A stretch of DNA of 64,000 bases from Protoeuglena noctilucae (taxonomy: Eukaryota). Positions 7,001 to 53,800 of the stretch are shown one piece after another. The stretch is from NCBI GenBank assembly GCA_958009085.1, contig OY253668.1, forward strand, positions 1,984,001-2,048,000, written 5' to 3'. The number at the start of each line of letters is the position of its first letter. The first letter of the stretch is position 1. Both the position numbers and the translations under genes were made by a program. Under the pieces are notes generated by a model. It searched no databases and was not told the DNA's origin. It saw only the letters and a list, made by a program, of their open reading frames with translations.

Positions 7001-7677
7001 CCGGGAGGGAGCGGGGCCCGAGTGGCCGGTGACCGTGGCGGTGGTGACGAGCGGAGACGGGGGTGCGGGTGCGGGTGCAGGTGCGGGTGTGGGTGGCAGT
7101 GGAGTTGCATGGCGAGAGTTCTCTGCGGACCCCGGCGGCCTCAGCGCTGCGCTGGGAGAGGCGCTGGGGTGGCTGGCGTCCCGCGCGCCGCCGGACCCCC
7201 AGCTCTGGTCTCTGCGGNNNNNNNNNNNNNNNNNNNNNNNNNNNNNNNNNNNNNNNNNNNNNNNNNNNNNNNNNNNNNNNNNNNNNNNNNNNNNNNNNNN
7301 NNNNNNNNNNNNNNNNNNNNNNNNNNNNNNNNNNNNNNNNNNNNNNNNNNNNNNNNNNNNNNNNNNNNNNNNNNNNNNNNNNNNNNNNNNNNNNNNNNNN
7401 NNNNNNNNNNNNNNNNNTCACCAAGCCCGCGATGCAAGAGCGGCGGCGCGGCACGGGGCCTGCGGACGCCTCTTCGCACCGGGGGGACCTGGCCGTCAGC
7501 GTGACGAGGCCATCGAAGGTCCCTGCGACGGGGACCGCGGGGCTGGCACCCCGGGCTTGCCTTGAGGGGGTGGCACCCGGGGCTCGCCTTGAGGCCGTCT
7601 TGCGCCTCGAGCGCGACCGGCGCCGCGAGCACGAGGCGTGGCTGCGGGGCGTGCTGGAGAGCCCCGCGCCCGTGTAG
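1010..7677 (+). CDS. SAC3/GANP-family (TREX-2 scaffold) protein with N-terminal FG-repeat region; multi-exon
   Basis: Exons 1010-1108, 1200-1340 and 1448-~2663 join in frame and the third is FG-rich. SAC3 motifs follow: IVGMCDKMCSDAEVEER, LRTLPALERT, IYNFVWDRFRAI, EQHVRF, PNEAEFRAY, IFVRFFR. The C-terminus is Ala/Arg/Glu-rich. Continuity across the N gap and the stop at 7677 are inferred. Confidence 0.85.
7218..7417. other. Assembly gap (200 N)
   Basis: Run of N inside the 3' part of the SAC3/GANP gene. Confidence 1.
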
Positions 7678-28000: not shown

Positions 28001-31000
28001 TCTCATCAGTCTCCTCAATCAGTCTCACCACACTCTGCTATCTTAAACGACCATCGCCGTTTCATACGCAGGCCCGTCGATGCTTCCGAGAGGCACGCGG
28101 GCATCGAGGCGACCCTCCACGCCAAGACATCCAAGAAAGACTCCACGGCCAGCGCAGAGACGGCAGACAACGCCGACGCGACCGCAGAGCAGCGACAGGA
28201 GACCGCCATTGCCGCAGCCGATGCGCAGGGTGGTGGTGACGCGAACGCCGCACCGACCAACGAGGGTGGCTGCGAGGAGGCCGACGTGGTGGCGCTGCAG
28301 CTGCCGCCCGCGCTGCGCCGCCCAAAGCGCCTGAGCTTCGCCAAGCGAGCGACGGGCAACACGGAGGCCACATCGGCCCTCCCGACCCCGTCGTCGCCCC
28401 GCATGGGCAAGGATGCGGCCCCTCTCGACTTCGCCGGCACATTGAGTGCCCCCAAGCGCTACGGCAAGGATCTGGGCGCGTCCCACCCCGTCTCTCCCCG
28501 CCGTGCCAGCAATGCGACCGTCCCTGTGACGGGTCGCAAGAGCAGCGAGGTGGCGCCCGCTTCGGATATGGAGAGCAACGCCGGGGACCGCACGGCTGGG
28601 CAGTACCGTCTGGCGATGAGCGGGCAGGACAAGGATGGCGGGGAGTACGACTCGCATGACTTGCTCCAGCAGGACGACGTGCAGGTGAGGGGTGGGGTGG
28701 GTGGTGGTGGGGGTGGTGGTGGTGGTAGTGATGGTTGGGTTGAGAGGTGGTCTGCGGGTGAAGGCGGGAGTGAGGGTGGTACTGTAGATGGGACGATCTC
28801 ACTCCCTCGATCTCACCTCTCCTTACTGTAACTCCCCTCTCCCACCCCCCCAGGTCAAGGCTCGGAAGTTCAAGCGCATCCACGCCCTCCTCACCACGGG
28901 CGTCATGCACCGCCCGCAAGTGCTGCTCAAGTACGCGCTGTGGGTGGTGGTGGCCGTCATCGCCGCGTCCCACTCGGTGGGGTATGCGGTTACCAGCTCT
29001 GTCATGCGCCACCACTACGTGATGCTCAACCACGTCAACCTCTGCAGTGCCAACATGAAGGGGTCCATGGACATCGTCAGGCGAGGAGACGGGTGCATGT
29101 TAGCATGGTACTACACATCGTATGTGTAATACCGCAAACCGTCTCTTCTCATGTCTGTGTACACCCTCACACGCACCTGCCCCTTGGTCACACACCCTCT
29201 CGCCACTCTCACACACGCGCTCCCCACCCCAACACACCCTCACACACTCTTCCACACCCTCTCTTACACCCCTTCTCACCACTCTGACACTTCCCTTCCC
29301 TCCCTCCACCCCCCCAGGGCCGCCCGCGTCATGCAAGCGATGGCGGTGGGCGTGGCGGTGCCCGGCTATTCATATGACATCGCAGTGCAGGAGCTGCAGG
29401 CCAGGACCACCAGCTTCCTCGCCAACCACAACGCACTCTACACCGCCACCAGCAAGTACCCCGGGAAGTGGGGCAGCACGTTCCACGTGAGTGCAACGAG
29501 GCGCGGCACAGCACGTTGCGTAGCATGGACGGGAATGTGCTGTTGTTAGGGTGTCATGGGCGAGAGGCAGGCTCTGTGGCTGTCCATCACACCATCTCCG
29601 GTCCCCTTTTCCCTCAAATGCTTGTGACTACCGACCAGACCGACACCCCCGCATCGCCACCACCTCTATCCTCCCCCCCAGTCCCTGTGGCTAGACAACG
29701 ACATGAAAGTGACGGAGATGACGTCCTCGGACCTCAACACCTCCACGCTCACCCAATCGCAACGCAACCTGTGGGAGGTGGGCAACGTGTTTGCATCCCA
29801 GGCCTTCCTCCTCGCCAAGGTCACCGCGGAGCAGGCGGCATCTGCGGACGTAGCGCAAGACTCCACGTTCCGGTATCTGATGGACAACGGGGACACCCCG
29901 CTTAATCAGAGATACACGCAAGTGCTCGACGCATTGATCGGACGCGCCAAGTGGAATCTCCATACTATGGGGGTGTCCGCGCTCGTGTTTCTGGCTGTCG
30001 AGGTCGGGGTGGTGGTGCCCGCGGCCATCTGGGTGCTCAAAGCGCGGCTGACGGGCGTTCTGGCGGTGCGGGTACGCCAGATCGCCTTTCTGGTGGCCGT
30101 GCCGAGGGGGGTGCTGGTGGAGCTGGCGAGGCGGTCGATTGAGCTGGAGGATGTGGAGGGGGTGGATGACGGGGAGACGGGGGCTGCGGATAGGGAGGCG
30201 GATAAGGAAGTGGCGATGGCGAGGGACAGAATGGGGGAGGCGAGGCTTTCGTCCAAAGCCATGCGGGCGCTGCTGGCGCAGAAACTGGACTACGAGCGCG
30301 TGTGCGGTGAGTTTGGTAGTAGTGGGGGGGTTTTGGTGGGGTGGGGTGGGGTGGGGTGGGGTGGGGTGGGGAGGGTGGGGGGTGCATCACATCACAGCGA
30401 ACGATACGCTTACTGCCGCTCGTTCATATGCTCACTGCCATTCATGCGCTCACTGCCACTCACTCACGCAAAGCCTGCCACCCTCGTGCCCACCTCCCCT
30501 CCATACACTCACTGCCACCCTCGCTCACCCCCCATCCACTCACACTGCCACCCCTAACCCCCCCCCCCCCCACCCTTCCCCCCGCAGTGGCGCGCGACCA
30601 GATCCTCGCCCGTCGCCCCAAGCAAAAGTCCCACCGGAGCCTGGAGCTGCGCATCATCACTCCTTTCCTGATATGGGCCGCCGTGGTGGCTCTACTGTTC
30701 GGGCTCACCTGGTTACTTCAGACCATCAGCGCCCGTCGATTGGAGCCAATGCGTGCGATGAGCAACCAGAACAACTTCGCTGCCAAGGTTCTCTATCACT
30801 CGACGCAGCTGGTGGTCGAGACGATCAATCAGAGGAACGGGAGCCCCTATGCCATCATGGACACCTCGATTGACAGGTGAGATGGTAGTGAGGGAGTAGA
30901 TAAGGGTGGGGTGTGTGGGTGGTAGATATGCCATCATGGACGCCTCGATTGACGGGTGAGGGAGCGGATGGGGGAGTGGAAGGGTGTGTCTTGTCACAAT

Positions 31001-33795: not shown

Positions 33796-36700
33796 TCATT
33801 TCTTCCCCGCATACAGCTGCCGGAATATCTTGTGTCGCTTGGCGGGTGCCCTGACTGGCGCCGTCTGCGCCTGACGCTTGGCGCCAGAAACGGCGGCGTC
33901 GGCATCCCTGGCATATTCGGCGTAATGCATGTCGTCGGCGCCTGTCAGGGTGGCCAGGGATCCCACCACGCGGCGGACACCCTGGGGGGGTGGGGGTGGG
34001 TGAGGGTGAGGGTGGCAGTGGGGGTGGCAGTGAGCGTGTTGCGATGCAGAAGGGTGCGGGGTGAGGCGATACGCAGAGTGTCTCTCATCATCACACCCAC
34101 AACACCGCACACCCTCACTCACCCCCGCTCCCTGCTTGGTCGCCTTGGCCCCATCGCCCACGATCTCCTCCCTCAGCACATCCTGCGAGACAGTCAGAAG
34201 GAAAATGAGTGTATTACATCTAGTAACCATCTGTGTTACTAGTCATGGTCATTTTCACGATAGTTATTGCAAGCAAGGCGACCAGAGTGCCAGCACCCCC
34301 CTCTCGCATTTACCCATATCCATATATTCACACCCACATTCATCTCCCCTCACCTCCAGCAGCTTCTGCCTGTTCTCTGGCTTGGCCATCCGCGTCTGCT
34401 GCAGCTTGGCGCGGTACGTGGGGTGGCGCCTGAGAGGGAGTGACAGAGAGGGGGAATGTGGTTTGCTGTAAATGGATTACTTGTACATTGAATAGCATAG
34501 TAGTATTACTTGTACATTGAATAGCATAGTAGTACTATCTTCATCATCCATAGCGCCTTCGCCTGCGCTGGTCGTCGACACGACCCTCACTAATCGCACC
34601 CCATGCACATCGCCGCTCCCATATGTTTTTCACAAATGATACGACTAATAATCACCTGAAATAGTCCTCGTAGTCGAGCACCCTATAGCTGTACCCCTGA
34701 TCGACCAGGAACCGCTGCCGCTTGACGCTGAAGTACATCTCACGCGTGTCACGCGAAACGAGCGAATAGAACACAGAGTCCACGCCCATCACGCGAGAGA
34801 CCTGGGGATATATTGGGGATATATTGGGGATACATAGTAGTATTGTGGGAATTATGGTTTTAATATAATATAATATAATATAATATAATATAATATAATA
34901 TAATATAATATAATATAATATAATATAATCCACTCGCCTTCCCCGCCGCTTTCCGCCTCAAGATGCGCCCCAGTCGCTGTGCTTCCTGCCTCCTGGATGC
35001 CCCGTGGGACGCCACTTGGATGATCACATTGGCGTCGGGGATGTCGATCGAATCGTCGCCCACCTTGGAAAGCAACTATGGGGGTGGGGGGATGGTGTGG
35101 GGTTAGGGTGAGATGTGAGTGAGATGTGAGTGAGCTGAGACGTGACTGTTAGTCGAGATGCAGTGCTAATCGCCACCCCCACTTTTCCCCTACTCCTCAC
35201 CAGCGTCTTGATCTTGCCCGTCTTGAATGCCTCCAGTATCTGCATGCGGTCTGCAAGTGATGGGAAAGGGAATGACAGTTTCAGCACATGGTACATAGAT
35301 CGTTTACTATATATCGACTGACCCATCGCATCGCATGTCATCACGCCCGCACACAACCAACGCCTCACCCCAACCCCCCCCACCCCCCTATCAACAATCA
35401 CCTGCCTGCGACGTCTTGCCGTAAATGCAGTTGCGGTTGAACACCTTCTGCATGTGCAGCAGCGCGAAGATGTTGTCCGAGAACACGATCGTGCGGTGGT
35501 TGAGCTCCTCGTGGGTCCTCATCAAAAATTCCACCATCATGTACTTGACGGGGTTGCACACCCACAGGCGCTGGCGGAGCGAGGGGGAGTCGGACTTCAG
35601 GTACTCGCTGCGGGCGGGGGTGAAGTGTGGGGGTATTGGAAATTAATTACAGTAATAATTGTAGTGATGATTATTAGTGAAAGTAAAAGTGACAGTGACA
35701 GTAATGATGGTGATAGTGATAGTATAGTAGTAATGATATAAGAAATAATAATAGTAATAGTAATAGTAACAGTGGTAGTGATAGTGATAGTAATAGTATT
35801 ACTATTATCAAGTAATGAAAACAGCCTCACCGGAAGAACGGCGCCGTCATGGGGCACCATATCTCCAGGCACTCCACCGTGGCGATGTGGCCCTCTTTGG
35901 CCAAGTCACTCCAGTTGGCCTGGGGATGGAAAGGGGGTGCAGCAGTTGCTGTAATATTAGCAGATAGCGAATAGCAGATAGCGTACGTTGTATGTAGGAT
36001 GGTATATGATAACCACCCGCCATTGCCCAATCGCACACCACCACCACCACCACCCACCCCCCTCCATATCCCCCCTCACCTCGTACAGCTTTGGCCCGAT
36101 CAGGAAGTGGAGGTCATTGATGCGGCTGTCCTCCCGGACGAGCGTGGCGGTCAGCCCCAGCTTGCAGTGGCTCTTGATGATGCCAAAAGACTTGCGGAAG
36201 TCGTCGGCAGGGGCCACGTGCACCTCATCCAATATCAGCAGACCCCACTCCATCGACCGGATCATCTGGGAGGGTGAGTACGGTGATGTATATGGTATGG
36301 TATGGCACATACTGAGAGATGGGCAGTGATGGTGCTCTCTAATACATGAGATAGTGGCCTATGGTGACTTGTGAGTAACAATGATAAACCCCACTTTCTC
36401 TGAATCTCGCCTGCATGACCCTCTCGCTCTCCTCGCTCTTCTTCCCCTCGCCCCCCGTCATCATCGTGTAGGTGGTGATCTGGGAGAGACGGGGGGGGGG
36501 GGGGGGGGATGAGAATGAGTGAGCGAGAAAGGTACATACTGGCACTGGCAATCAACAGTGTTATCGTCCATCGCGAAGCAGCACCCAAATCACCCACCCA
36601 TCACATATAGATCTATTACTTAAACATCCCTCACCAGCACCCCGCACGCCCCCGGGAAGAACCTCTTGTCTACATCACATACATCCATCACTCATACATC

Positions 36701-39700
36701 TACTCATATATCAAACATATACTACTCATATATCAAAAAAAATCCCTCACCAGCACCCCGCATGCTCCCGGGAAGAACCTCTTGTCCTCGGCCGTGAATT
36801 TGGCGACGTGGAATTCTGGCAGCGTCGACCACTTCAGAAACTCGCCCGCCCACTGCTCCACCGCAAGCGTGTTCTGGGTGTGATGGGAGATGGGGGGGGA
36901 GACTAGGGTGGTGGGAACACGATGGTCGATCCATCACTCACTCACCGACTCATCCACTCACACTCGCTCACTCACTCATCCCCTCACTCACTCACTAACT
37001 CACTCAATTACTCACTCACCTTGCACAGCACCATCACGCTCTTCTTGATCCTGGTGGCCGCCGCGATCCCAGTCAGTGTCTTCCCCGCCCCGCAAGGCAG
37101 CACCACGATGCCCGAGCGAGCACGACCATTGCCAAACATCTTCGACAGGCACTTCTCCTGGTAGGGGCGCAGGCGGACCTGGGGGGGACAGCCGGCAATA
37201 CTTGTCCTTTTACTAATAACTATTAACCTGATAATGATAACGGGTTGAGTATAATGGACCGCACGCCTATCAACTACCCCCCAACCCAACCCCTAACAAC
37301 AAACCCCCCCCCACCAACACACACGATAACGCCACCCCAACCCCCACCTGCGGCCTGAGGTCCATCTGCAGCGTGGGGTTGACCCTGTCGTTTTTGAAAT
37401 CGTATTCCTCCAGCATGGGGAAATTCAAACCATCCGGCAGACACCTCTGCTTGACCCGCTCCACTTGCGACGCGGCAATCTCAAACGCCCACACCACCTC
37501 CTCGCCCTCCTGTTTGAAAGAAGGGGAGATGCGGGTTTATATGATATATATAGTATTACTACATATAGATATCGATGAGAGTAGTAGGAGTGTCTATAAA
37601 AAGAGAGCGAAGCAAACATCGCATGCCTCGCCTGTATGTCGTATCCCTCGTACTGACGCTGCTGCTCCTGAGTGGCAGACGCATTGGCCACGCCGGCACC
37701 TGCGATGGGGGAACAACGATCACTTTTGGTCCATTATCACGCAACTGGCGATCGACTGTTCATCGACTGCCGATGCGACTACCCAGCGCGCGCTCTTTCG
37801 TCCATCGCCCAGCCACGCATGTTGTACAGCTCTGCGATCTATGCCTATCAACAGAACCTCACCCCCACCGCTGCCACCCCCATCACCCCCAACGCCACGT
37901 CACCCCCGCCCCCCCCCCCCCCCCCCCATCACCCACATCACAACCCCCCACCCCACTCACCCCTCGCCCCCATCGCCTCCTCCCCCTCCTCATCGCTTCC
38001 CCCCCTGCCCCCTTCAACCGCATCCACCGCCTCTTTGGTCAGATCAATGGCAGCGTGCTCCCTCAACGCCCTTCCGGACTCTATCACTCGCTTCTCCCCC
38101 GCCATCGCAGATTGAATGACGGAGTCCCTGAGAGGAGATAGGGGGGAAGGGGGGTGAATGGGGTGAGAGTGAGAGGGAAAGGGGTGGGGTATGGGTGGGG
38201 TGGGGGTGTTGGGGTGGTGTGGGGTTGCGGGTGAAAGTGAGTGAGAGTGGGTAAGCGAAAGTGAAAGTGGGGTGTGAGTGAGTAGGAGCGGTGGTTATGA
38301 CTTTTAACGATCGCAGCAACAGCGACAGCGTCGCATCCCACCCCACTCATCACAAACTCTCACCACCAACCAACACCCCCCCTCCCCTGCTCTCACCAAT
38401 AGCAATCACCACAACCACACCCCCTCCCCGTCAATCACCTGGCCAGCCTGTCCAGCACCGCCTTGTCGGGCGACTCCACCCAGAATCGGTTGTGCTTGAG
38501 CACCACCTTCACCTTGCCGAAGTTGACGGTCGAATCGTGGATGAAGCGGGAGAGCTCGGGGGGGACGCCCACCTGGGAAGATGGGGGGGGGTGAGGGGGG
38601 GGCGAGGAGTGAGAGTGAGGGGGTGGTGCGGTGAGAGGGAGGGGATGGTGGGGTTGCGATGGTCGGATGGGGTGCAACAAGCGGGTGAGACGTGCGACTG
38701 CTATGTCTCTACAGCACCACAACACAAAGCAACAGCCCCATCTATCCCACTCCCACTCGCCTTGCTCATGCGTTGCAGCACCACCCAGTGCAACTGCCCA
38801 TCTATCACTCTAATCCAATGCACTACTCGCCTTGCTCATGCGCTGCAGCACTTCCACGATGGTCTGCGTGGTCAGCCCCACCGACACGGCCGCGTACAGC
38901 GAGTGGGGGGTGAGGCGGTACTCATGGATGCTGTCGGGGCGGGTGAGGGGCTCGGCGATGGCGATGAGGAAATCTGAGAGAGGGGACGAGGGGGAGTGAG
39001 TGGGTGATGGGGATGAGGGGAGTGGGGGGGGTGAGGGGAGGAGAGGGTGAAAGGTTATGGCCATTGCTACTCCTCACCCCCACCGCCATCGCCACCCACC
39101 GCCTATCACCTATCCCAATCGCTACCCACCACCCATAGGCATTGCAACCCACCCCCCACCACTACCCCATCTCTCACCGTATGCTTGTCGGTAGATGGGC
39201 GACTGAGACTCGAGGATTACTCTACCAATTGCCCATCTCTCACCACTAACCCACCATTCATCATTACCCCCTCTCTCACTACCCCCATCTCTCACCGTAC
39301 GCCTGCCTATAGATGGGCGACTGCGATTCCAGGATCACCCTCGCGTCCGGCAGCACCCACATGGGGCGGTTTGGGTGGTCGGGCTTCAAATCCAGATGGG
39401 AATAATCCACGCAGCCGTGGCCCTCCTCATCGTCCTCGTCCTGAGGGGAAGGGGGGTGGGAGTTGATGCGAGCATAAGATGTAATTGACTGAGAGAGTTG
39501 TTGACTGTGTTGGTAATAGGGTCCAACCACCAATCCATTACGTTGTTGACGCACAAGATGCAATTCTTTGGCCATCAAACCATCACCACCGTCACCATTA
39601 CTCCCTCACCTCCGTGTCCACCCCATCCTCGTTGTCCCGAAAGAACCTCCCCCCGCCCCCCGCCTTGCCACCACCGCCCCTCGCACCACCACCCTTCCCC

Positions 39701-41476
39701 GCACCGCCACCGCCACCCCTGCCCTTCTTTCCACGCCCAGATGCTGTCGATGCCGCCCCACCCCCCGCAGAAGCCGCCTGCCTCGCCCTGCCACGCCCCG
39801 CACCCCGCCCCTTCCTCCCCCCACCGCTCTCCTCCTCCCCCTCCTCATCGGTCCCGTCCACCTCGACCCCCATACTTGAAACGTCAGAATCTGACACCAC
39901 CATCGCCGCCTTGCGGGCACGCGGCGCTCGCTTGGCGGGGGCTGGCTTGGCGGGGGCTGGCGCGGATTTGCGGGTGCTGCGTGAGGCGCGGGACGTGCGG
40001 CCCTTGCTGCGCGGATGGGTGGGGGAGGGGTGGTGAGAGGTGGGGATGTCTTTTGAATGAAACACCCTCACTCAGAGCAACTGAACTATATGTCACTAAG
40101 ACGGACAATGACACCCACGCCATGACGCCCACCACCCACCTCTTGCTCTCCTCCACTCCCTCGTCCCCCGACCCATCCTCGTCGCTCTCCCCGCCATCGC
40201 TGCTCCCAGACTCCGACTGCAATGGTGGTGGAGAGCGCGACACAGGCATAGCAATCGACGCTGTGCAGTGACAGTGCTACAACACGTGTAACAGTCATCG
40301 ACTTTAGTCATGGTCACATCGCCCACCCCACCCCACAACCCTCCTCCACCTTCTCACCTCTACCACCCCCTCCATGTCCATCTCGTCCCCCTCGCTGCTC
40401 ATCCCTTCCCCCGCCGCGTCAAAGTCCTCATCCCCTGAATCGTCGTACTCGTAATCGCTGTCTGCCGCCTTGCGAGCGCGGGCGCGGCGACCCGCCCGGT
40501 CCTGGAGATATCATATGGATATCATAGAGTGGGGAGGAATCCGAGTCATGTTAAGTAGATATCTGATGTAGTTGATAGACGCTGTGTTGTCTCATAACGC
40601 TGACGGTGGTGATCGCTTCACTACATGCAAGTCTGCCCATCACCCATCGCTAGCCCTGCTAACTACTACCACCCACCACGCACCTGCACCTGCTCTTTGG
40701 CGTTCCGCTGAGCCCGCCCCGCCCGCCCGCCCCCGTCCACCACCACCACCACATCCCCGTCGCTCGCCCCACCCTCCACCGCAGCGCGCCTGGCAGCTGC
40801 CCGGCCCTGCGACCGCTTGCGACCCCCGGGGGCACCCGCAGTCGAGACAGATGCGTTGATCGGTGCCAATTCCGGCGCCGGGGCAGTCGAGGGTTGCGGC
40901 TCCGAGGGCAGAGCACCCTGCGCACCCCGCGTGCCCTGTGCGCGAGCAACAGCGGCGCGCGGACATCAGGATAGAGCGCCTGGGATCGACAGTCTTCCAT
41001 ATATTGCGCATATGTATCCATGAAGATTGCCAAACGCGACGCCGACAGGGCCCGCTGCGCCCTGCACCCTTCGCCCCGCGCCTCGCCTCGGTCGCTGGCT
41101 TGACCCCGTACGCCGCAGCCGTCGCCGCGCCGAGCTTGATCTTGAGACCTCCCCCGAAATTAACCTTGAGCTGCGGGAAGGAGGGAACCGCGGCATCGCA
41201 TCCGCGTCGCCATGGGGACGCATCGGCTCTGGTGCGGCTACGGTGCTCCGCGCAGGCGGCTTCTGGACACGCCAGGCACGCGACGTATGGAGGAGAAGTC
41301 GCATCGCTTGACAGCGCACAAGGCACGGTCCATCGTCGGCCCCAGACCCGCCATTGCCGCGGTGCACCGGTGCAGCGAGCGCGCCCGCGACGATGCGAAG
41401 AGCTCACCTTGGGCTTGCTCGCCTCCGCACCGTCCGTTCGGTTCCCTCCTTCCCCGTCGGGCGCAGGGTCCCCCAT
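33796..41476 (-). CDS. XPB: TFIIH / nucleotide-excision-repair 3'-5' helicase XPB; multi-exon
   Basis: [67 protein letters not shown] (Walker A), [16 protein letters not shown] and [14 protein letters not shown]. The start codon and the acidic 5' exons (39600-41476) are less certain. Confidence 0.95.
34861..34929. repeat. (TAATA)n pentanucleotide microsatellite, about 13.8 units, in an XPB intron
   Basis: Perfect TAATA tandem array next to the GC donor at 34937. Confidence 0.97.
35645..35815. repeat. AT-rich degenerate (AGT/AAT/GAT)-type low-complexity repeat in an XPB intron
   Basis: Sequence such as agtaataatagtaatagtaatagtaacagtggtagtgatagtgatagtaatag. Confidence 0.75.
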
Positions 41477-41897
41477 GATGGCCCCTGCCGCAGGCGCAGG
41501 CCCGGGCAGGGGCACACGCGCTGGCCTGGCGCTCGCGCCCGGTTTCTCCGATAGACGCGGCCCTGATCGAAGATATTTTGAACAGTAGATTCACCCGCGC
41601 AGTAGACTATGATGAATCTGCCACGGCGCTCCGCGCGAAAGAGCCGTGTCTTTGCGTGTGAGTGCTCAGCCTGCTCGCGTGGGCTAGCGATGCAGGGGAG
41701 AAGGTTCCGTGTCAAGGCAGAGACAATGTGTAGACTGCCGTACCTCGGGGGCGGCGAGGCCTCGTAGTCTGCCACAGCTCACGAGCTGGCATCGTGCGGC
41801 ACATCAAGGTACAAAACCCGCTCGGCAGCGACGATTCCAAAGAACCCCGCGATTAACGACAGCAATACGGATCCATCGGCGAGCCAACATCGAGAAT

Positions 41898-43793
41898 ATG
41901 GCGCGCAAGTGAGTCGGGGCAGAGCAGGGGAGTGTTGTGCCCATTTCTGTGCCGAGCCCTGTGCTACCGCACTGTTTTTGTCATCACTCGCATTCACAAG
42001 ATGTCAAGAATGCCGTAGCGCGCCTGAGCCGCCGCGCTTGTCGGGCCATCGCGCGCCCATCCGCCCCTGCAGGCGGAAGCGGGCAGACGAGGGCTCCGAG
42101 GCGCTGACGGAGGAGGAGAGACAGCGCCGGGAGCGTCAAAGAGAACTAAGGGAACAGGCACTCGCAGCGCGGAAGGAGGTGACGCACTCGGCGGCGCGTT
42201 CGCGAGCCTTTGCTTCCTATTAGGCTGCCTGTGCGCTGACGCGACGCCGCTGCCGCGCGCGCAGGGCGGCGAGTATGTTGCGAGTGCGGAGAAGAAGCGC
42301 AAGGAGCGAAGCCTGAGCCGCCTGCGCCAGCGCGAGGCGGAGCGGGCCAAGGCGAGCGCGAAGAGCCCCGCGAAGAGCGGTGGCAAGGGGAAAGCGAAGC
42401 GTGATGGCAAGCGGGAGGTGAAGCCGACGCGAGAGGGAATGCCTAAGAAGACGGTGCAAGTGGTGATCATCCCGCTGTACTGGAAGAAGGAGGAGGGCGG
42501 CCAGCAGAAGCGCGATGTCTTGGCCGGTGAGGGGCGCGACGGTTTACATGATGCATGGCTGTGCAAGCTATCGACAGCATGCATGGATATAGACACTGCC
42601 ATCGTAGCACCGTTCTCACTTCCCACTATCTTACTACCACAGCATCCTCGTCACCCCTCACCCCCCTCTCCCACACACCAATATACCCCCCTACCCCCAT
42701 ATAACCCCTTCCCCCGCCCCCCCCGCCCCCCCCCCCCCCCTCAGCGTCTCGTCTGGCATCCGAGCTCCTTCGTTCCCGCGGCTACGCGGCGTGGGTGGAT
42801 TTGGACGAGTCTGCAATGCCAGGGACCAAGTTTCGCAAATGGGAGGAGGAGGGGGTGCGCGTGAGGGTGGAGATCGGTCCTAAGGACGTGAAAGACGCAG
42901 ACAGGATGACGTGCGTGGTGGCGATCGCCAAGGGGGTGGGGGAGGTGGCGGACAAGGCGACGGTGGGGCTGGGGGAGGGAGAGGCGCTGTTTGACAGGCG
43001 AGGGGTGGTGGGGTGGGTGAATGGGTGGGGTGGTGAATGGGAGAGGGCGGGTGGTGAATGGATGAGGGATGGGGTGGGGCGGGGTGGGTGGATGGAAGAG
43101 GGGGTGGTTGATGGGCGGGGAGAGGGGTGGGGTGGTTGAGTGATGAATGGGAGAGAGGGTGGTTGATGGATGAGGGGTGGGGATATGATGAGGTTGTAAG
43201 GAGTCACGCCTCGTCCCCTGCTCTCAGGGTGCGCAAGGGTGCGGGTGACCCCATACTGGAGCCGAGGGAGATGGATAAGGAAATAATATCGACGATTCAA
43301 CAGCAGAGGGCGGCCAATGGAGCGGGGAAGGGGCGGGGGGGTGGGGCGAGGGGTGCGGGGGGTGCGGGGGTGGCGAGTGCGGGTGCCAAGACGGTGTTTG
43401 GGAGTGATGATGAGGGGGAGGGTGGTGATGGTGGTGATGGTGGTGGGGGGGGTACAAGTGGGGGTGCGAGTGGGGGAGTGCGTTTAAATGCTGAGGACGA
43501 GGATGACTTTGGGGTGGATGAGGATGGGGAGGAGGATGCGGCAAAGACGGAGAGGAAGGGGGTGAGGGTGGGGTGGGGTTTGGCATGTGACGCTTACATG
43601 CGTGTGCATGTGTCGATAGAAGAGTGGCTGTGCGACCAGCACTGATAGATAGATAGCATGGCATTTGATCCATATAAGATTATCACTAGATTGACAAGAC
43701 ATCGTGTCTTCATCGCAGGGTGACCCTCGCGGGGACCGCAGAGACCGGCAGAGGGGGCGGGGGCAGCAGGGGGGGAGGCGGGGAAGGCGATGA
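41898..43793 (+). CDS. Protein with a stand-alone class IIa (ProRS-like) anticodon-binding domain, basic N-terminus and Gly/acidic/Arg-Gly C-terminus; 6 exons
   Basis: Spliced translation MARKRKRADE...VQVVIIPLYWKK...ELLRSRGYAAWVDLDESAMPGTKFRKWEEEGVRVRVEIGPKDV resembles the ProRS anticodon-domain pattern PGxKFxxWExxGVxxRxEIGPKD. No catalytic domain is present. Confidence 0.75.
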
Positions 43794-44110
43794 ATGGGTG
43801 GCCATGGGTGGATGGGAATGTGCATGATGCATGTTACGTGTTGACACTTAGTATAGACATGCAGTTGGTGCTTGGTCACGAACGATCGCATTTGATGAAG
43901 AGGAGTCAGTGACGGTGCTGTTGCTGACATTAGCAGATATCGACAAACGAGCGAATGTGCCGCGAAAGAGACTTGAAACGGGCCAACGCAAAGAGCGAAG
44001 CAGTCAGCCACACCCCACTCGCCCCACCACAACAATCCCACTACCACCACCACCCATCTTCCCCCCCAGCTTCACACGAAACAACCAACCTTTCCCCCCC
44101 AACCACTCCT

Positions 44111-47100
44111 TCACTCCGCCCCTCCCTCAGCCCACCCCGCCAACGTCCCCCCCAATGCCGCCGACCCTTGCCTTGACCCCACCCCACCCTCTCCCTCCAC
44201 CCCACCCCCCTTCCCCTCCCCCACCTCCCCATCCCTCGTCCCGCGAATATGAGGCGACTCCACATCATCCCCACCCTCGTTCCCCTCATTCCCCAGTCCC
44301 AAAGGCACATCGACCGAGCTGCTACCGACAGATGGCGACAGCGTGAGTGGCGCACGACCGGACACCCCATCCCCATCCACCACCCTATCATCCCTGTTCT
44401 CCTCATCCCGACCATCCCTGCTCTCCAATTCGGCGCCAAAGCCCGCCCCCTCAGCCTCACGCAAACTGTACTCGCCCCTGCCGCCCTCAGACATCGAGCC
44501 AGACCCCACCGACCCAGCTGCAGGGGCCAGCTCTCGGAAACACCCACCCTCGCTGTGCGCAGTGACAGCGGCGGATGCGGGGATGGATGTCCTATGAGTA
44601 AGGCCAGGGTCACTGCTCAGGTCCCTTTCGGGGTGATGCTGAGGGCCGCCATTGCTTGGGAGTGCGGTGGGGGTGGGGGCGGGGGCGGGGGTGGTGGCGT
44701 TATGGGTAGAGGCGGCATTGGTGGATTCCAGAGTGGCTAGGCGTGCCTGCAGTGCGCGTATCTGCCTGCGCAGGTCCTCCACCGTTGCCTCGGTGGCGCC
44801 GGAGTGGACGCTGGGGGGGGGGGGGGGGAGGGGGTGAGGGGTGAGTGGGTGCATGTGGGGTGAGTGGGTGCATGTGGGGTGAGTGGGTGGGGGCAGTGAG
44901 GGTGGGGTGGGGAGAGGGATGGTGAGGGATGGTGTGTAGTGCGTGGCAGGTGTCCGTGGCGCAGTGCGATGGGTGACGAGGCCATGTCTTGCAATGACCG
45001 CGTCTGTCCATCTCTTTATGCACAACAACCACTCACCGCCCCTTCAGGTCCTCCGTGCGCTTGTTGATGACCAGCCCCGCTGATCGGCTCACGCTCCGCG
45101 CCACCGTCAGCATCATGGACGTCTTCTCACGCTGGGGGGGGGCATTAGAGATGGAAAAGGATTGAATCTTATATGTGTTGATTGCACCGCAGTGGCATTG
45201 AACAAACCACAGCTTGGAGTGTTGCTAGGGGTGTTGCCAACCCCCATGTCACACCACCCGTCACCCCCACCCCTTGCATCCCCCACACCACCACACATAT
45301 CCCCTCACCTCCAGCACCTCACTGGCGATCAATAAACACCCCCGCATCATCCATGCACCCACCACCCATCCCCTCACCTCCAGCACCTCACTGGCGATCC
45401 TCTCCACCTCCCCGACCGACACGCCCCTCACGTGACGCCCCGCACCCCTGCGCCCATTCCCACCCACACGCCCCTGCCCCGTCTGCCCGTTCTTGCCATT
45501 ATCCCCAGCATCCTCGCCCATCAACGCACTCTCCACCGCCCTCTCTGCGATTTCCTGCACCTGCCCCGCAAAGCCAGCTGCTCGCTCCCCCGCCGCCGCT
45601 GCCGCTAGCAGCTCCATCTCTCCACGAAGGACGCGCTCTAGGTCGGAGAAACGCGACTCCTGATGGGGGAGGAGGGAAAGAGAGTGATGGTGAGGGAGTG
45701 GGGTGGGAGGGGTGGGTGGGGGGATGCGGTTTGTAGATGCGTGGGGGGTGCGGGGTTGCTTGTGTTCCCGCTTGCAAACGTATCCAATATGCGACTCATT
45801 TGTGTGACATGCGACATGCCGCCCAATCCGTTTTCAAATCCATGCGACCCCACTCCCACCATCCCCATCCATCACCCCCACTCCCCCGCTTCACCTGTTC
45901 CCTCACGAATTCCGCCCTCATTCGTTGGAACATGTCGTGCACGTCTGCCTTGTTGAGGCACCCAACGCCCCTGGCTGAGCCCTCCACGGCCACGCTGGGG
46001 GAGAGACGAGGGAGGGGGGGGGGGGGGGGGTGTAGATGATGAGAGAGGGGGATTAATGGGGGTGTGGATGAGAGAGGGTTGAAGAGAGCATGCAGTCACA
46101 CGGCCCTGCTAGCTGTCCATCTCCCATCTCCCATCCATCTCTCCTCACCTGGCCTGGCTGTCCATCTCTTTCCGCACCACATGCCGCACGTCCTCCTTCC
46201 ACGCATCCGTGTCCCTCTCCGCACGAGTGGCACCCTGAAGACAGGAGAAACAAGTGACAAACAGTCAGGCAAACACCATGTGATTGCATCTCAAGCACCA
46301 CCGCATCCGTGCATGAGGCTACATGAAGCCACAGCCAATGAATCCCAGATACCCGGTCGCTTGGCCTGCCTGGTCGCATTGCCTGGTGACCTGCTCTGCT
46401 CCTTCCCCATCTTTCCCTATCTCCCCCTCACTCCTCACCTGCGTCGCCCACTCCATCTCCACTCCCCCACTCCCCCCGACACACCTGCGTCGCCCACTCC
46501 ATCTTCTGCTCCAAGGTCTCCTCGAATGTCTCCCGGTCCTGGCGCAAATACTCGGCCACCAGCCACTCCACCTGCTCTCGGGTCATCAGGTCCCCGGGGC
46601 CCTCCGCAGCGGCGCCGGCGCCCGCGCTCGATACATTCGCGATCGCTTGCTCGACGCTGCCGCTCGGGGCGGGCGAGTCGGGGTCGGACGGGGCCAGCTT
46701 AATCGACACCTGGCTGGGCTCGGAGGCCATCGACACGGAGGGCATCGGGACGCCGCCCGGACCGCCTTGGGAGGACGATCGCTGCGTCTGATTCGAGCCA
46801 AGCGCACCTGCGGGCCGGCGGGGGGCCCCGGTCGCGGCCCGCGGAGAGGTGTCATGTCGCCACCGTGCTGCCCCGTTGGCGCCGCGCGCGGGGCCGGCCG
46901 TCCCCGAAAACGCAGAGATTGCGTGACCCGAGAAAAGACAAGGTCAGAGCCGACGCGAGCCGAGGCGCGGCGCACCTTCCGCATCGTTGCGATGGGTTGG
47001 GGCCGCCCCGTTTGCCTCCGCCGCGTCCCGCTGCGCGGACTGCCTGCGGGAGGAGAACGCCATCGCCGTGTGAATCAAACCTTGCCCGATGACGGAGCCA

Positions 47101-47541
47101 GGAAGACGTCTGGTGGGGGCGCGGCCGGCCAAGACGCGGCCAAGACCCGCAACACCAGGGTGGTTCCTCTCACTCGGCAACTCGCTGCGCCAGGTCCTGG
47201 ACCCGCTTCGTCAGCTGATCCAGCTCCATGACTGGCGCCGGCGCGTGCGAATGCTTGAGCTCAGCGCGCAGGCTCGCGAGCTCGCGCCCCTGCTCCGCGA
47301 CCTTCTGCTGGAGCTCGCCCAGCGAGGGAGCGGCCGAGCCGTGGTGGGCGATGACATCGTGGTCGAAATCTCGGTGACCGCCGCCGTCTTTTCCGCCAAA
47401 GCACCTCGCCAGCAAGCCCTGTGCGCGAAAACAGCTCCTCGCTTTGCTTTCGCCCCGCTCCCCGAGACCCCGCCGCACGCACCTGGTCCTTACAGGCCTA
47501 AGCTTTACCTTGCGGGAGCCACCGGCAGCCGAAGGGGCCAT
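44111..47541 (-). CDS. Hypothetical coiled-coil protein; multi-exon
   Basis: In-frame GT-AG-joined exons encode LGELQQKVAEQGRELASLRAELK, MTREQVEWLVAEYLRQDRETFEETLEQKMEW and VEDLRRQIRALQARLATLES. I recognise no family, and both ends are uncertain. Confidence 0.6.
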
Positions 47542-47805
47542 GGCGAGCCGGCGCAGGCCAGGGGAGGTCCTTTCACCTTGATGTGACTGGTCGAATGCGA
47601 CGACGACGCGGGTTATCGACAAGCAGCGCCACGCGGTCGTGTTCTTCGCAGTCTTTCGATGATCTGAGCCCGGCGAGGGGAGCGGCGGGCGTGCCAGCGG
47701 CGCGAAATCGTTGGTTTCAAGCGTAGCGTTCTGCGCCAGCGGCACCAATCATGCTCGCGCGGCGCCGGACATCGCATGGCATTCCTCAAAAGCCATCCGC
47801 TAGCG

Positions 47806-50800
47806 TCACGCGGCGGGGAAGAACATTTTGGTGGCGATGCGGGTGAGGAAGGAGAGGGGCCAGGAGGCGGCGGCGATGGCGATGTTGATGCCCCATTCGG
47901 TCTTGCTGCGGGGGCGGGAGGAGATGATTGCGTCGCGGGGCGGTTGGCGGGTGACATAGGGCGGGAGACACGTGAGGGTGCGTCGCATGGCATGGCCACG
48001 CATGACCCATGACGATCGCCCATATGCATGCACCCCAATGCATGGCCCATGAATGCATGGCCCATATGCATGGCCCATCCCAAGACTGCCTGTCCCCTCC
48101 CATCGCAACTGCGAACTCACTTGAGTGGCGTGATGACGAAGAAGGTCCCGACGGGCGTGAGCATGAAGATGAGCTGCAGCCCCGTGGTGACGATCATGAC
48201 GCCCAGGAAGATGTGGTTGGTGAAGATGCCGTCAAAGACGTTGATCTCGTCGTCAATCTTGCGCGCGTTCACCTCGTTGAAGAGCTGCAGGAAGATGAAG
48301 GTGTTGAAGACCATCGTGTTGACGTGGGACTCCTGTGCGGTCTGCCACTCCGTGAACACCAGCTCCGTCATCTGACGGTTGTGCGCGTAGTTGCCGCCGG
48401 GAAGAGCACCGTCGGGCAGGCGCAGGCACCCGGAGGGGTGCACGGGCCACCGGTAGGAGCGGCCGGTGTACTCGCGGTCAATCAGCAGCGCGCTCTTGAG
48501 CTCCCCCCGCGAGTAGGAGGCGGCGGTGAGGTAAGAGGAGAGGGTCTGGTCCTGCAGCACGCTCGACGTCACGCGGTCGTCCAGCTGCGGAGGGGTGAGG
48601 GGTTGAGGGAGTGGGTGAGGGGGTTGGGGGGGTGTCAGATGATGGAGCGACGGGGATTTGTGACGGAGAGAGGGTGAGTTGCCGACAGGCAGATGGTCGC
48701 AGCCACCGTTGCTCATGCATCGACGCAGCGCACCCCCCCACACACAGCACTCTGCCATCACACACACTTGCAGTGACCACCACCCCCGCACCCCCACTAC
48801 CCCCCCACCCCATCGCCCCCTCACCTGGCTGGCGGTGAGGGTGCAGTCCTTGGCCCTGTAGTAGTCGTTGATCTTGGGGGGCACAAAGATCAAAAGCATG
48901 AGGGCCACGAACTGGTAGATGCCCTGGATGAAGATGTGCTTCCACATCTTTCGGCTGATCAGCGCGCTCTTGCCGTAGGGCTTGCGGTTGAGCAGCTCCT
49001 CGGTGGGCAGCTCGGTGGCCAGCGCGAGCGCCGCCATCGAGTCCATGACCAGGTTCACCCACAGCAGCTGGATGACGTTGAGGGGCGTGCCCTTCTGGGC
49101 GATGGCGGCGGAGAAGGCGATGAGCAGCGCCACGCAGTTGATGGTGAGCTGGAACTGGAGGAACTTGCGGATGGCGTCGAAGATGTTGCGGCCCCACATG
49201 ACGGCCTTGACGATCGAGTTGAAGTTGTCGTCGGTGATGACGATGTCCGAAGCCGCCTTGGCCACCATCGTCCCCGCGATGCCCATCGCCAGCCCCACCG
49301 ACGCCTCCTTCAGAGCGGGCGCGTCGTTCGTCCCGTCGCCCGTCACGGCCACGATGTCCCCGCGCCTCTCCATCAGGAACTTGACCAGGCGTTTCTTGTC
49401 TTTGGGTTTCGATCGCGCCAGCACCTGCAGCCGGTCGATAACCTTGTCCAGCTCCTCGTCGGGCATCTCCCGGAACTCGTCCCCGTCCATCACCACCCCG
49501 TCTCCAAACAGGATCCCGCACTCGCGAGCGATGTACGTGGCCGTCAGCTGGTTGTCCCCCGTCACCATGCGCACCGTGATGCCCGCGCGGCGGCACTGGG
49601 CCACGGCGTGGGGGACCTCCTGGGGGGATGGGAGAGGGGGGGGAGGGGGGTTGGGGGTGTGGGGTGGAGGTAGCTGTATGGGGTGTGGGTGTGCAAGCGG
49701 TTGCGTGCAAGCAGGTGCGCGCCACCCAAGTCATGAACTGCGCTTGCAGAACATACAGCCCCCGCCCCGTGCAACCCCCCCCTCTGCTCGCCTTCCTGAC
49801 CGGGTCCTTGATCCCCACCACCGCGCACAGCACGGGGTCCCTCAGGGGCGGCTCCTCAAAGTCGTCGTCTTTCAGCGTCCCCGGCAGGTCGCAATAGGTC
49901 ATGGCCAGGCAGCGCAGGCCGCGGGACGCCATCTCCTTCGCCACCTCCGTCGCTTCCTTCACCAGATCGCCCGACATCTGGGAGGGGGTGGGGGGTGGGT
50001 GAGTGGGTCGGTGTCACACACACACACACACACACACACCGAGCTTTCGACTGAGTCAGCACAGCACAAGTCATGTCACCACTGCCGCACTCGCGCCACT
50101 GCTGGCCCTTACCAACCAATTTACCCAGCCTCACACCACATTACACTGCACCGTCACACTGCACCCCCTCTTCCGCACCGCAACCCCCACCGTCGCATCG
50201 CACACCACCCCCGACCCACCCACCCCCCCACCTAAGCCTCCAACTCACCGCCACGACCTTCCCCTCCAGCGTGGTGGCGTGCGTGCACTCCTCGATGACC
50301 CAGTCCCACGCGCCCTTGGTGAACATGCGGTAGCCCTGCCCGTGCCGGAACACGGCGTGCGACATCTTGGTCGCCGAGCTGAAGATGTACTTGCGGTGCA
50401 ATGGGTGTTTCTGGCGCATCTGCCGGTAGTCGACTCCCCACTGGTCGGCCAGCAGCAGGAAGGCCTGCTCGGTCGCGTTGCCCCCCGCAAACACGGGCTT
50501 CTTCGTCACTTCGTCAATGGTCTTGAAGCACTCGGAGTTGAGCGTGGCGTTTAAGTAGATGAGCTCCGACTGGTCCTTGCGCAGGGCGTCCATGCGGGGG
50601 GTCTGCTTGTAGTGCTTGCCAAAGAAGTAGCCCTGGGGGGGGAGGGGGGGGGGGGGGGGGGGGGGGTGTGGGTGGGTGAGGGTCGGGGTGGCAGTGGGGG
50701 TGGCAGTCGTTCATCTATGTCACTTCTTATCGTCATAACATCCAATCGTATTCATCCTCATCCACCACCACCAGCTCTCACCTCCACGATGGTCATCTGG

Positions 50801-53800
50801 TTCTCTGTCAGCGTCTCCCTCTAATCATCATTTATCATTCACATCCACCACTCATCTCACCTCGACAATCGTCATCTGGTTCTCCGTCAGCGTCCCCGTC
50901 TTGTCGGAGCAGATGGCCATGGCGCCGCCCATGGTCTCGCAGGACGCCAGCACGCGCACGAAGATCTTGTCGGTGAGCATCTTGCGCATCGAGTACGCGA
51001 GCGCGATCGTCACCGCCTGCGGGGGAGGAGAGGGGATTGGGTGAGGGGTGGGGAGCGTGGGGCTGGCAGGGATGGGTTTGGACTGGCACGCTGTTGAGAG
51101 ATCGGTCGGTCGGTCGTGTTTCCAACAATACACAGGCAGCCTCAATGTGCACACAATGCAGTCACGCTGCGGGCCTGATCAGTGCACCTGCTCCACCCCT
51201 GCTACCTCACCCCCACCCCATACCCCTAACCACCCTCACCAGGGGCAGCCCCTCGGGCACGGCCACGACGACGATGGTGACGGCGAAGAGGAAGTAGTTG
51301 AGGACGTCGGTGCCGTGCTGGGCGTAGGCGCCATTGCGGTACAGCACCAGCCACTCAATCGTCAGCACCACGAAGCACACCGCGCCCACCGCCATGCCCA
51401 GCTTGCCGATCGCCGCGGCAAGGTCCGCCAGCTTGATCTGGAGCTCTGCGGGGGAAGGGGAGAGGCGACGGGGGTGATGTTATTGCAAGCGCGTGTATGT
51501 GCGACCGTCTGCCGCCATTCACCCAGCAATCTCCACCCCCCGTTCGCTTCCCTCGCTTGCTCGAACTCAAAGCGACACCGTTGTTCACCCCAGTCCCACC
51601 CTCATGCGCACATGTACCACCCTTTCACATCCCCCACCCAACCCACCCCACCCCCCCACCCCACCCCCCCACAACCCCACCCCACCCCCACCCTCTCACC
51701 CGTGTCCGGCGCCTCCCCCATGACATCCTCGAGGGTCTTGCCGTAGAAGGACTGCTCCCCCACAGCCGTCACCACCATAGTCCCCGACCCCTCGACAATG
51801 TACGACCCCGAAATGAGGTAGGGCTCCTGCTCCCCCTTCATGATGGGCTCGGACTCTCCGGTGACCGACGACTCGTTGGCCTTCAGTTTGAATCCCTGGA
51901 CGAAGAAGCCGTCCGCCACCACGGCGTTGCCCGCCTCGAGCTTGAGCACATCCCCGACGACCACGTCCACGTTCTTGATCACCTCCTCCTTCCCTGCAGT
52001 TGCGTGGGAGAGAGGAAGAGGGTGGGGATAAGAGGGGCGAGGCACAGAAGGCATGGCATGAGGTGCACCCTTGGGAGGGCATCAAGAATAACGCCATGGG
52101 CGGGGTGGGGTGGGTGGGGTTGGCATTTCGTAGCAATCATACACAATCATGCACAGCTAGTGTATGAAGAGCCTTCCTTTGTCACCCCAGCCCCTCCAGC
52201 CACGCCCCGTCCCGCCCACCACCCCTCTATCACACACCCACCACCTCTCACCTCCCCGCATGACCGTCACGTCGAACACCTCCCGCTCCGAGTTGAGCTT
52301 CCGGAACTGCTTGTCCTTCGAGTAGTCGTTCCCCGCGCCCACCGTCGACACCACCAGCACCGCCACCCAGATCGCCACCCCCTCCACCCAGCCCCCCTGC
52401 GCCCGCTCCTCCGGGATCGTCACCCCCAGCACCGTCGACACCAGCGCCGCCAGGCACAGCAGGACCAGCATCGGGTCCTGCAACACCTCGAACAGCAGGC
52501 CGAAGAACGTCTTGGGAGGCACCTCCTTGTACCGATTGGGGCCGAAGTCCTCGCGGCGTATCCCCACCGAATCCATCGACAGACCCACCGATAGGTCCTC
52601 CACCCCCAGCTTCTGGCCCAGGCCCGCGACGCCTCCCAGCTCCTGCAAACGAGCGAGCGGGGGCGCTGGGCGCGAGCAACGCCCCCCCTCCTGTTTCTCC
52701 CAATTGGCGTACCGACCCTCGGCGCACCGACCACTGGCCCGGCCCCGATTCGGCGCGGAAGCCCCACCTTGAGGCGCTGGTGCATCTTCTGCTTCATGTT
52801 AGCCGCCTCCGCCTGCTCCTCCTGACTCAGCGGCTGCGCCGCGGCCCCGCCGTTCTCCTCGCCCTCGCCCCCCATGTGGGCCTTCTTGTGGCCCGTGCCC
52901 CCGGCCTTGACGGCGATCTGCGCACGCGGAGGCGGCAGAGCGATGCGTCAGGCGAGCGCCGGAGCGCGGCGGGGTCCGTCGCGGGGAGGGACGGCCGCGC
53001 GGGGCCATTTTGGGCGGCCGGGGGAGGCGCAGGCACCCGCGCGGGCGCTGGGAGGAGCGCGAGGCGGCTGCGGGACATCGCGCGCGCCAAGAGGAAACCG
53101 GAAGCCGCGCATCACTCCGAGAACGCGGCGGGAGCGACGCGGCGGGGCGCGGGGGCACGAGGTCAACGCGGCGAGCTGAGCCCGGCGAGGTCAGCGGAGC
53201 CAGGTCGTTTCCGGCCATGAGGGATCCGCGATAGCAGCCTCGCTTGGTATGAAACCGGGAGGAAACGCCACCCTCCGGTTTCGAGCCCGCCAGGCGCCGG
53301 GGTGGGGGCCCCAGTGCTCGGCACATGTTTGGACGCGGGCAGCGCGCGAACAGTGGCGGGAAGGGCAGAGAAGGCAGCGCCTGCTCACTCAAACGCCGAC
53401 AACAAAGGGAGAGGCGGCGGCCATGGCCTGCGAGGGACCATCGCGAGCCCCGGGCGAGTCGGCCCTGAAAGGGCCGGGACCAGACCCGCCCGGGGATCTC
53501 TGGACCCCGTAGTGGGCGCGACGGATGTAATATAACGGATTTCGCCGGGACAAAGGGTCTCCCAGGGCCTGCCGAGCCCGGAAGAACGCCCCCCCGACCA
53601 TCTCCCCGGCAACGCCGGCCCTGGCCGCCATGCCGAGCGCGGAACGCGATCAAAGGCAATGACAGCAGCTTCGAAACGCGCGCCGGCCCCGCGACGGCCA
53701 AGCATGCGGACATGTCACCCGAACTGCGCCCACCAGTCCCGAGCCATCACTCACGTCGTTCAGCTCATCGAGCTCCTCCCGCGTAATGCCGTAATGGCCC

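Follow-up and report, generated by a model that had tools for sequence, protein, structure and literature searches.

An intronic tandem copy of an XPB exon end that differs from its exon at silent sites alone, among recurrent splice-junction duplications in Protoeuglena noctilucae

The stretch analysed here (positions 1,984,001 to 2,048,000 of contig OY253668.1, assembly GCA_958009085.1, Protoeuglena noctilucae; 64,000 nucleotides, numbered from its first letter and referred to as the window) carries on its minus strand XPB, a DNA-repair gene encoding the TFIIH helicase and having, by our reading of its open frames, about 23 introns. At one of its splice junctions the last 46 bases of the exon, together with the donor that follows them, recur 118 bases downstream within the intron. 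The exon bearing this duplicated end (39296-39440; 48 codons plus one base) is an open frame preceded by cag and followed by gtgag, and the alignment with the protein of a relative, P0005, covers it from 39431 to 39297. The exon copy of the repeat (39341-39296; 46 nt, 15 codons plus G) reads AGG GTG ATC CTG GAA TCG CAG TCG CCC ATC TAT AGG CAG GCG TAC G/GTGAGAGATGGGGG, the slash marking the exon/intron boundary, and the intronic copy (39223-39178; likewise 46 nt) reads AGA GTA ATC CTC GAG TCT CAG TCG CCC ATC TAC CGA CAA GCA TAC G/GTGAGAGATGGGG; the final exon-type bases are 39296 and 39178, and TACG/GTGAGAGATGGGG is the end of both. Read in frame, the two copies encode the same 15-residue peptide: 9 of the 15 codons differ without a single amino-acid change, and the 10 nucleotide differences comprise nine at third positions and one at a first position, the latter in an arginine pair (AGG/CGA). 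The coordinates, codon lists, shared peptide, nine silent codons and arginine swap given by an earlier, sequence-only reading of this DNA are exact on the minus strand.

Downstream of the exon, the first donor and about 19 intron bases common to the copy (GTGAGAGATGGGGGTAGTG) occupy 39277-39295. They are followed by a spacer (39224-39276), with which two more copies of a donor-like motif (39279-39267 and 39243-39231) overlap and in which an 18-nt tandem repeat is found (39232-39296; period 18, 3.7 copies), then by the intronic copy (39178-39223), in which G+C at third codon positions (GC3) is 8/15, and finally by a second, intact donor-like site with 18 shared intron bases (39160-39177). Beyond the two donors 13 bases are identical and about 19 are alike but for one extra G. 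The entire intron is 322 nt long (38974-39295), the next exon being set by the P0005 alignment (38974-38831). A repeat search of the window recovers the pair (D7) as a direct repeat of 59 nt at 83% identity with a spacing of 118. It is highly probable that we are dealing with a genuine local duplication of an exon/intron junction in direct orientation, in which 46 exon bases were repeated along with the 5' splice site and about 19 bases of the intron.

An assembly artefact in which two haplotypes or strains have been stitched together typically looks like this, a tandem stutter with differences of the kind seen between alleles, and the window itself probably stems from a marine metagenome assembly. 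We compared region 36400-51000 with assembled contigs of four sequencing runs (X5, X6, X9 and X10), which are contigs rather than reads and from which rare variants are dropped. A 6,954-letter contig of X5, a run from another sample and another study, covers 37959-44867 with no differing letter and bridges both copies and the new join; its depth, 18.6, is similar to that of its neighbours (14.8 and 20.9). A second X5 contig covers 36522-37891. De Bruijn contigs cannot span a junction whose words are lacking from the reads, and the sole run of Ns in the window (200 Ns, 7218-7417) is not near the junction. All sampled words of the stretch are moreover present in independent runs labelled with a named organism. 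The sequence-only reading would have been undone by a single copy in the reads, or by two versions behaving as alleles; instead both stand in tandem on one independent contig. A haplotype-stitching artefact is thus excluded at the level of short-read contigs, and we regard such an origin as barely conceivable. Across the 14.6 kb of 36400-51000, the window differs in no listed letter from a culture-labelled run or from a second sample of metagenome type, as far as contigs that drop rare variants can tell, and diversity in this lineage seems to be very low.

XPB alone contains three junction copies, and for one of them the use of the donors is seen in RNA. At this sister junction (36622-36786, minus strand), the exon end and donor at 36786-36738 recur at 36670-36622, with a spacing of 116 and two silent differences in the exon part. 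A metatranscriptome contig of X9 matches the window up to 36751, the final position of the upstream copy; beyond it the contig has next-exon sequence, so that the splice joins 36751 to 36479. Across the same junction the transcript-derived protein P0003 (569 aa, from a 1,725-nt contig) reads ...GACGVL/ITTYTMM; it is collinear with the window in 13 segments, five of them at 100% identity, and starts downstream of the junction between 39296 and 38973. The 36.7-kb sister junction therefore makes use of its upstream donor, and splicing takes out the copy together with the intron; we infer the same for the flagged junction, whose copy would then leave with the intron and not be translated. Read-through of the flagged upstream donor meets a stop after five codons, and our reading of the flagged intron sequence found no GT/GC...AG pair by which the exon end could be exchanged in frame for the copy. 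The only frame-keeping AG before the copy is that of ggtgag, which has no pyrimidine tract, and the mini-exon so defined would delete conserved residues. A mutually exclusive or tandem alternative exon was accordingly rejected: the copy represents 46 of the 145 exon bases, is preceded by ...ttggt and has no usable acceptor of its own. GC donors (GCGAG...) are found in at least four of the approximately 23 XPB introns (37631-37630, 36410-36409, 34937-34936 and 38830-38829, minus strand), three of which are confirmed by the mapping of P0003 across them.

For the divergence between exon and copy, we ran simulations in which the exon took up silent changes only whereas every change was allowed in the copy; the number of differences was fixed at that observed, and mutability followed one of two models (uniform, or G/C sites three times more mutable). 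For the flagged pair (XPB1), the observed 0 replacement codons compare with 5.4 or 4.9 expected, an outcome reached in 0 of 20,000 runs under the uniform model and in 2 of 20,000 under the other. With the shorter segment defined by BLAST, which holds eight differences, the corresponding fractions are 0.0000 and 0.0008 of 6,000 runs. These run counts disfavour neutral decay for XPB1, and the earlier remark that such decay fits poorly is borne out: 10 all-silent differences are not as expected of a dead copy decaying in place. A coding-type constraint is needed on both versions for most of their separation.

The sequence-only reading had treated this case singly and missed that the window contains at least 12 junction copies. 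Comparing the window with itself gives 24 direct repeats no more than 400 bases apart, 12 of which are, by inspection, exon/intron junction copies, the remaining 12 being coding repeats, microsatellites or G-rich intron repeats. Nine are copies of 5' splice sites (at 4.1, 16.2, 17.6, 30.8, 36.7, 38.8, 39.2, 45.3 and 50.8 kb) and three of 3' splice sites (at 18.0, 61.1 and 61.6 kb), two of the latter occurring in threes. In the second XPB pair (XPB2, D18; 38755-38851, minus strand), the exon end and GC donor at 38851-38825 recur at 38781-38755, with a spacing of 70 and one silent difference; the intron is of the GC-AG type, and a partial third copy lies at 38717. A PAS-like gene carries a pair at 16.2 kb (g16k; 16182-16323, minus strand) in which 61 exon bases and the donor are repeated at a spacing of 74, with six silent differences and one Ser/Ala difference, and a partial third copy is found at 16172. 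In a Ca-ATPase gene (50776-50901, minus strand; gtgag donor, spacing 79) four differences are silent and two, at the upstream edge, change the amino acid; the nearest named relatives of this ATPase are from pedinophyte and trebouxiophyte green algae (66-69% identity). RNA contigs at the ATPase junction have loose ends at 50873 with unlike continuations in X9 and X10; they look like ATPases of other organisms matching a conserved motif and were set aside. The pair at 45299-45399 (minus strand, spacing 69) is identical over 32 nt and looks like the youngest event of the series; the X5 contigs break exactly at this repeat, with a 97-letter contig between the copies.

At 30848-30960 (g30k, plus strand, spacing 79), both of the two differences change the amino acid. 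One gene (17558-18165, minus strand) has three 5' junction copies (17800, 17703 and 17645) as well as three 3' copies (18165, 18078 and 17985), the latter decaying in the ordinary way, and in an oligopeptidase-like gene (61075-61728, minus strand) the differences among the 3' junction copies (61366/61213/61097 and 61728/61618) change the amino acid. Among the five pairs that differ silently, no unit length (118, 70, 116, 74 and 79) is divisible by three; the only divisible one is that of the identical pair at 45.3 kb (69). In two of the seven pairs examined (XPB2 and g16k) a partial third copy stands at the expected offset, matching at 8 of 10 bases each, the kind of trace that slippage, or unequal exchange involving short direct repeats, leaves behind; the other five pairs match at no more than 6 of 10 bases, XPB1 reaching 6/10 at offset 111 or 143. 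The exon-derived parts of the repeat units are free of insertions and deletions, whereas the intron-derived parts have many. A peptide-level scan of both strands for silently diverged copies below the reach of DNA identity (24 and 19 matches) revealed no new junction case. Junction copies of this kind lengthen introns in this GC-rich, intron-dense marine green alga.

One rival reading of the silent-only pattern is a chance extreme, picked out from ordinary tandem duplications whose copies decay neutrally. Six 5' pairs are informative. With hand-set boundaries they hold 2 replacement codons against 14.1 or 12.6 expected (P = 1.2e-8 and 5.6e-7); with BLAST boundaries, which add the two edge mismatches of the ATPase pair, they hold 4 against the same 14.1 or 12.6 (P = 3.5e-6 to 8.1e-5). 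When XPB1 is left out, the BLAST boundaries give 4 against 9.7 or 8.7 expected (P = 2.3e-3 to 1.2e-2), and P becomes 1.1e-2 to 4.5e-2 if a split codon is counted as well. Hence XPB1 shows a strong effect, and its replication, carried by the 16.2-kb and ATPase pairs, is moderate. Junction copies are common enough (12 in 64 kb) for extremes to be expected somewhere in the genome, replication outside XPB1 with objective boundaries reaches just P 0.002-0.045, and the low-divergence pairs and 3' copies look like ordinary decay, with the two replacement changes of g30k and with replacement changes and an 11-nt insertion at the 3' copies. However, the run counts for XPB1 alone speak strongly against chance: its third positions are near saturation (9/15), while its 30 first and second positions show a single change, itself silent, and the other pairs lean the same way. 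We consider a chance extreme very unlikely.

The sequence-only reading had also stressed that the intron bases after the donors are conserved beyond the silent sites. An ordinary cause can be given for this. The motif GTGAGAGATGGGG, with one mismatch allowed, has six matches in the window against 0.21 expected, and four of the six lie in the flagged intron (39295, 39279, 39243 and 39177). The identical donor-proximal bases thus point to local multiplication or homogenisation of a short motif and need no special constraint; since the motif has been multiplied four times in this intron, the identical donor flanks are not a second anomaly. In the flagged intron, as in other XPB introns, the 5' half is rich in G/T and the 3' half in C/T (G-rich and C-rich, respectively, at 38974-39295), and the 3' end of the flagged intron (CCCCTCTCTCAG) is complementary to the donor motif copies (I4, I9, I12 and I13). 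CCCATCT (39311-39317 and 39193-39199) can pair with AGATGGG past the donor (39288-39282 and 39170-39164), which would set the 5' splice site in a 20-nt loop; the arms coincide with two blocks identical between the copies.

Pairing between exon and intron as the reason for the silent choices was considered and rejected. For a duplex with 39145-39112 the energy is -39.6 kcal/mol in the case of the exon copy and -30.4 in that of the intronic copy, and just 0.3% of uniform synonymous recodings pair as well as the exon copy; under recodings matched to codon usage (GC3 0.89), however, P is 0.315. None of the exon copies of the other pairs tested gave a significant pairing (P = 0.065, 0.255, 0.38 and 0.965). 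Unusual folding of the region was dismissed as well (z = -1.54; 6 of 100 shuffles fold as well), as was a known structured RNA: a search of 38500-39700 against Rfam gave 21 matches at E up to 1, none at the gathering score and none over 39178-39223, the best scoring 27.6 against 105 bits. The weak, sub-threshold matches to mirtron-type hairpin families (27.6 vs 105 bits) fall in the 3' half of the intron, at 39013-39099.

The best explanation we can offer, and one that we advance tentatively, is that the exon and its intronic copy come from two coding lineages that had diverged before recombination joined them. For the greater part of the time since they separated, the two versions would have belonged to two functional XPB sequences, which may have been diverged alleles or homeologs, for instance from the two parents of a hybrid lineage. 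They could have been joined by an unequal, microhomology-guided exchange between homologs. Alternatively, an exon-confined gene-conversion tract might have overwritten the exon and spared an earlier local copy, the tract stopping at the exon because the introns no longer align. By either route the copy would be a fossil of the other allele. The sequence-only reading had found simple haplotype divergence a poor fit; this holds insofar as the versions stand in tandem and are not alleles, whereas recombination between diverged alleles is what we now regard as the best remaining explanation. A precedent for such a history is available: a trebouxiophyte green alga is described as an allodiploid hybrid in which mitotic recombination has turned the haplotypes into mosaics of the two parental species and heterozygosity has been lost pervasively, in the part of the account available to us (PMC12636532). 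The silent divergence of the three most diverged pairs is compatible with a common value (9/15, 6/20 and 4/11 codons; chi-square P = 0.19).

Several observations weigh against a two-lineage origin. A functional allele of a similar genome should look exon-like, yet the GC3 of the copy is 8/15, compared with 0.861 (404/469) for the XPB exons and with a G+C content of 0.526 for the XPB introns; none of 315 fifteen-codon windows of XPB exons is as low (P = 2.3e-3). Differences at position 3 versus positions 1-2 number 22:6 at the 5' copies and 5:7 at the 3' copies (Fisher P = 0.032; the counts for the 3' copies and two short 5' copies were made by eye), an asymmetry that an allelic origin does not predict. 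Silent divergence is unequal within the XPB pairs (9/15 vs 3/19 codons, Fisher P = 0.012), hence one uniform second lineage fails to account for all of them. Nor did any second lineage come to light: the run contigs, rare variants being dropped from them, hold no other letters in 14.6 kb, the ATPase open reading frame of the window and the XPB transcript each stand alone in 90% protein clusters, and the one related DNA locus recovered, at 62% identity, is distant and lacks a copy. A two-lineage origin would also call for many separate exchanges, illegitimate or exon-bounded, in the space of 64 kb.

In another possible reading, the copy is ancestral (either young or constrained as non-coding sequence) and it is the exon that has moved, acquiring ten silent changes faster than neutral, driven for example by pressure towards G/C-ending codons. 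This would explain the identical peptides and donor flanks without a second lineage. Six of the ten differences have A/T in the copy and G/C in the exon, in a genome with a GC3 of 0.86-0.95, and the distant relative's XPB (L001), a single locus found by searching metagenome contigs, agrees with the copy at six of the seven sites where it equals one of the two versions. However, two exon changes would go against G/C pressure (GAG>GAA and TAC>TAT) and one other is from G/C to G/C, and across the three diverged pairs the direction of change is not significantly skewed (10 vs 5, P = 0.30). With 62% identity in this exon, L001 is too distant for silent sites to be informative, and its matches track codon preference. 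A GC3 like that of the copy would itself be exceptional in an ancestral exon stretch, judged by the 315 windows, and the many insertions and deletions in the intron parts of the repeat units argue against youth. We find a frozen copy beside a fast-moving exon quite doubtful. Closer relatives were sought among contigs of prokaryote genomes (66 loci, the best 69% identical, the rest bacterial helicases) and viral contigs (two distant loci); together with the metagenome contigs, these yielded no locus close enough to polarise the silent changes. When its positions 1-2423 are compared with 34000-41500 of the window, L001 shares only the introns after ...QAY/G and ...GVL/, the flagged intron being one of the shared ones and most others being absent; it has one uninterrupted exon where the window gene has six introns, which points to a large intron gain here or a loss there. 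At its end L001 has long runs of G that resemble sequencing artefacts.

The difference between the 5' and 3' copies is better accommodated if the copy remains under selection for its coding sense while codon-usage pressure on it is relaxed, either through hidden translation or as a second 5' splice-site module; hidden translation might proceed through unit-deleted alleles, in which the copy becomes the exon end, or through an unrecognised splice form. Such continuing selection alone predicts together the lack of replacement changes, the intact donor with its identical flank and the intron-like third positions, and the silent excess is indeed found at the donor-keeping 5' copies and not at the 3' copies. 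Against this stand the want of a usable in-frame splice route, the five unit lengths that are not multiples of three, the stop five codons beyond the first donor and the poor acceptor of the only possible mini-exon, all described above. Nor do the run contigs show any diversity, although unit-deleted alleles were not looked for and would not be visible there. Indirect selection through gene conversion was rejected on our own population-genetic estimate: conversion erases silent and replacement differences alike, and for conversion or unit deletion to purge the copy, the product of effective population size (Ne), rate and selection coefficient (s) must be greater than 1, so that the rate would have to exceed 1/(Ne s) and yet stay below the mutation rate. 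For XPB1 we judge continuing selection unlikely. Its general form, that donor-keeping intronic exon-end copies are under purifying selection at the amino-acid level with relaxed codon usage, by way of interchange or as second splice-site modules, appears improbable; the interchange would in that case be occasional and might come about through deletion of a unit, through copy choice or through a splice route that has escaped notice. If true, it would define a new class of conserved intronic element, a silently recoded spare of the exon end. Our tentative preference stays with two diverged lineages joined by recombination, and with no second lineage seen and intron-like third positions in the copy, the all-silent puzzle stands.

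Two further kinds of repeat were noted in the window. At 34861-34929, 35675-35798 and 36934-37019, in a region otherwise of 54-68% GC, the XPB introns contain AT-rich microsatellites, namely (TAATA)n in 13.8 copies and hexamers resembling TAGTGA, as well as a (TCAC)n run. At 2145-2384 (plus strand), in-frame coding repeats (PAQTGPRPQLGFGAA...) lie 174, 81 and 93 bases apart and resemble FG-type repeats; five nucleotide differences leave 15 residues identical, as expected if both copies are translated.

The junction copies represent a concrete and ongoing way of intron growth in an intron-dense green alga, namely that introns stutter at their own junctions and leave behind perfect decoy splice sites, evidently ignored by the cell. 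If the silent-only divergence proves general, the copies may be dated fossils of a second parental genome, and a cryptic hybrid ancestry could then be read from a single haploid sequence; alternatively, they may represent a so far undescribed kind of selected intronic element. A literature search of limited coverage gave no account of intronic exon-end copies that differ solely at silent sites. Among described algae, Pelagomonas (0.45 introns per gene), Chloropicon (0.5 introns per gene), Amorphochlora (27% GC) and Micromonas, whose introns in low-GC regions are short and AT-rich, are no match for a gene having about 23 introns at 54-68% GC.

Internal gene duplication has reportedly been treated by Gao and Lynch in 2009, and tandemly duplicated, mutually exclusive exons are said to have been described by Kondrashov and Koonin and by Letunic, Copley and Bork. 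As in mutually exclusive exons, an intronic copy of an adjacent exon keeps its coding sense and a working-looking donor; here, however, only the last 46 of 145 exon bases are copied, no acceptor stands in a phase that could be used and the unit length is not divisible by three. A second likeness is to introners, which are transposon-derived introns of marine algae according to the portions of the reports that we consulted (PMC9860276, PMC3879977): this is again a marine alga with many lineage-specific introns, L001 lacking most XPB introns, and the intron ends are complementary. No dispersed family is found here, though, and the repeated part is host exon of 21-61 nt rather than a short target-site duplication. 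An intron of the introner or transposon type was accordingly rejected, as four of the six motif matches lie in one intron and self-comparison shows no other intron family.

Hybrid allodiploid green algae and yeasts would supply two coding versions per gene and frequent exchanges (PMC12636532, from the sections available). Tandem junction scars are not described in those sections, and neither a second subgenome nor heterozygosity nor a parental species was seen here; on the other hand, hybrid mosaics fit a clonal, low-diversity lineage such as this one. The closest parallel is the internal tandem duplication over an exon/intron boundary known from studies of intron sliding and gain and from the potato RdRp gene (PMC2891723, PMC3265369, PMC4974935, each as far as the excerpts seen go). 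There, too, the short repeat bears a splice site, one site is used and the extra copy is left in the intron, and microhomology or a partial third copy at the unit boundary recurs in two of our sister cases. The excerpts do not describe copies diverged almost only at silent sites, of which we have three cases. In the alga such boundary duplications are pervasive, 12 in 64 kb, and involve both 5' and 3' splice sites.

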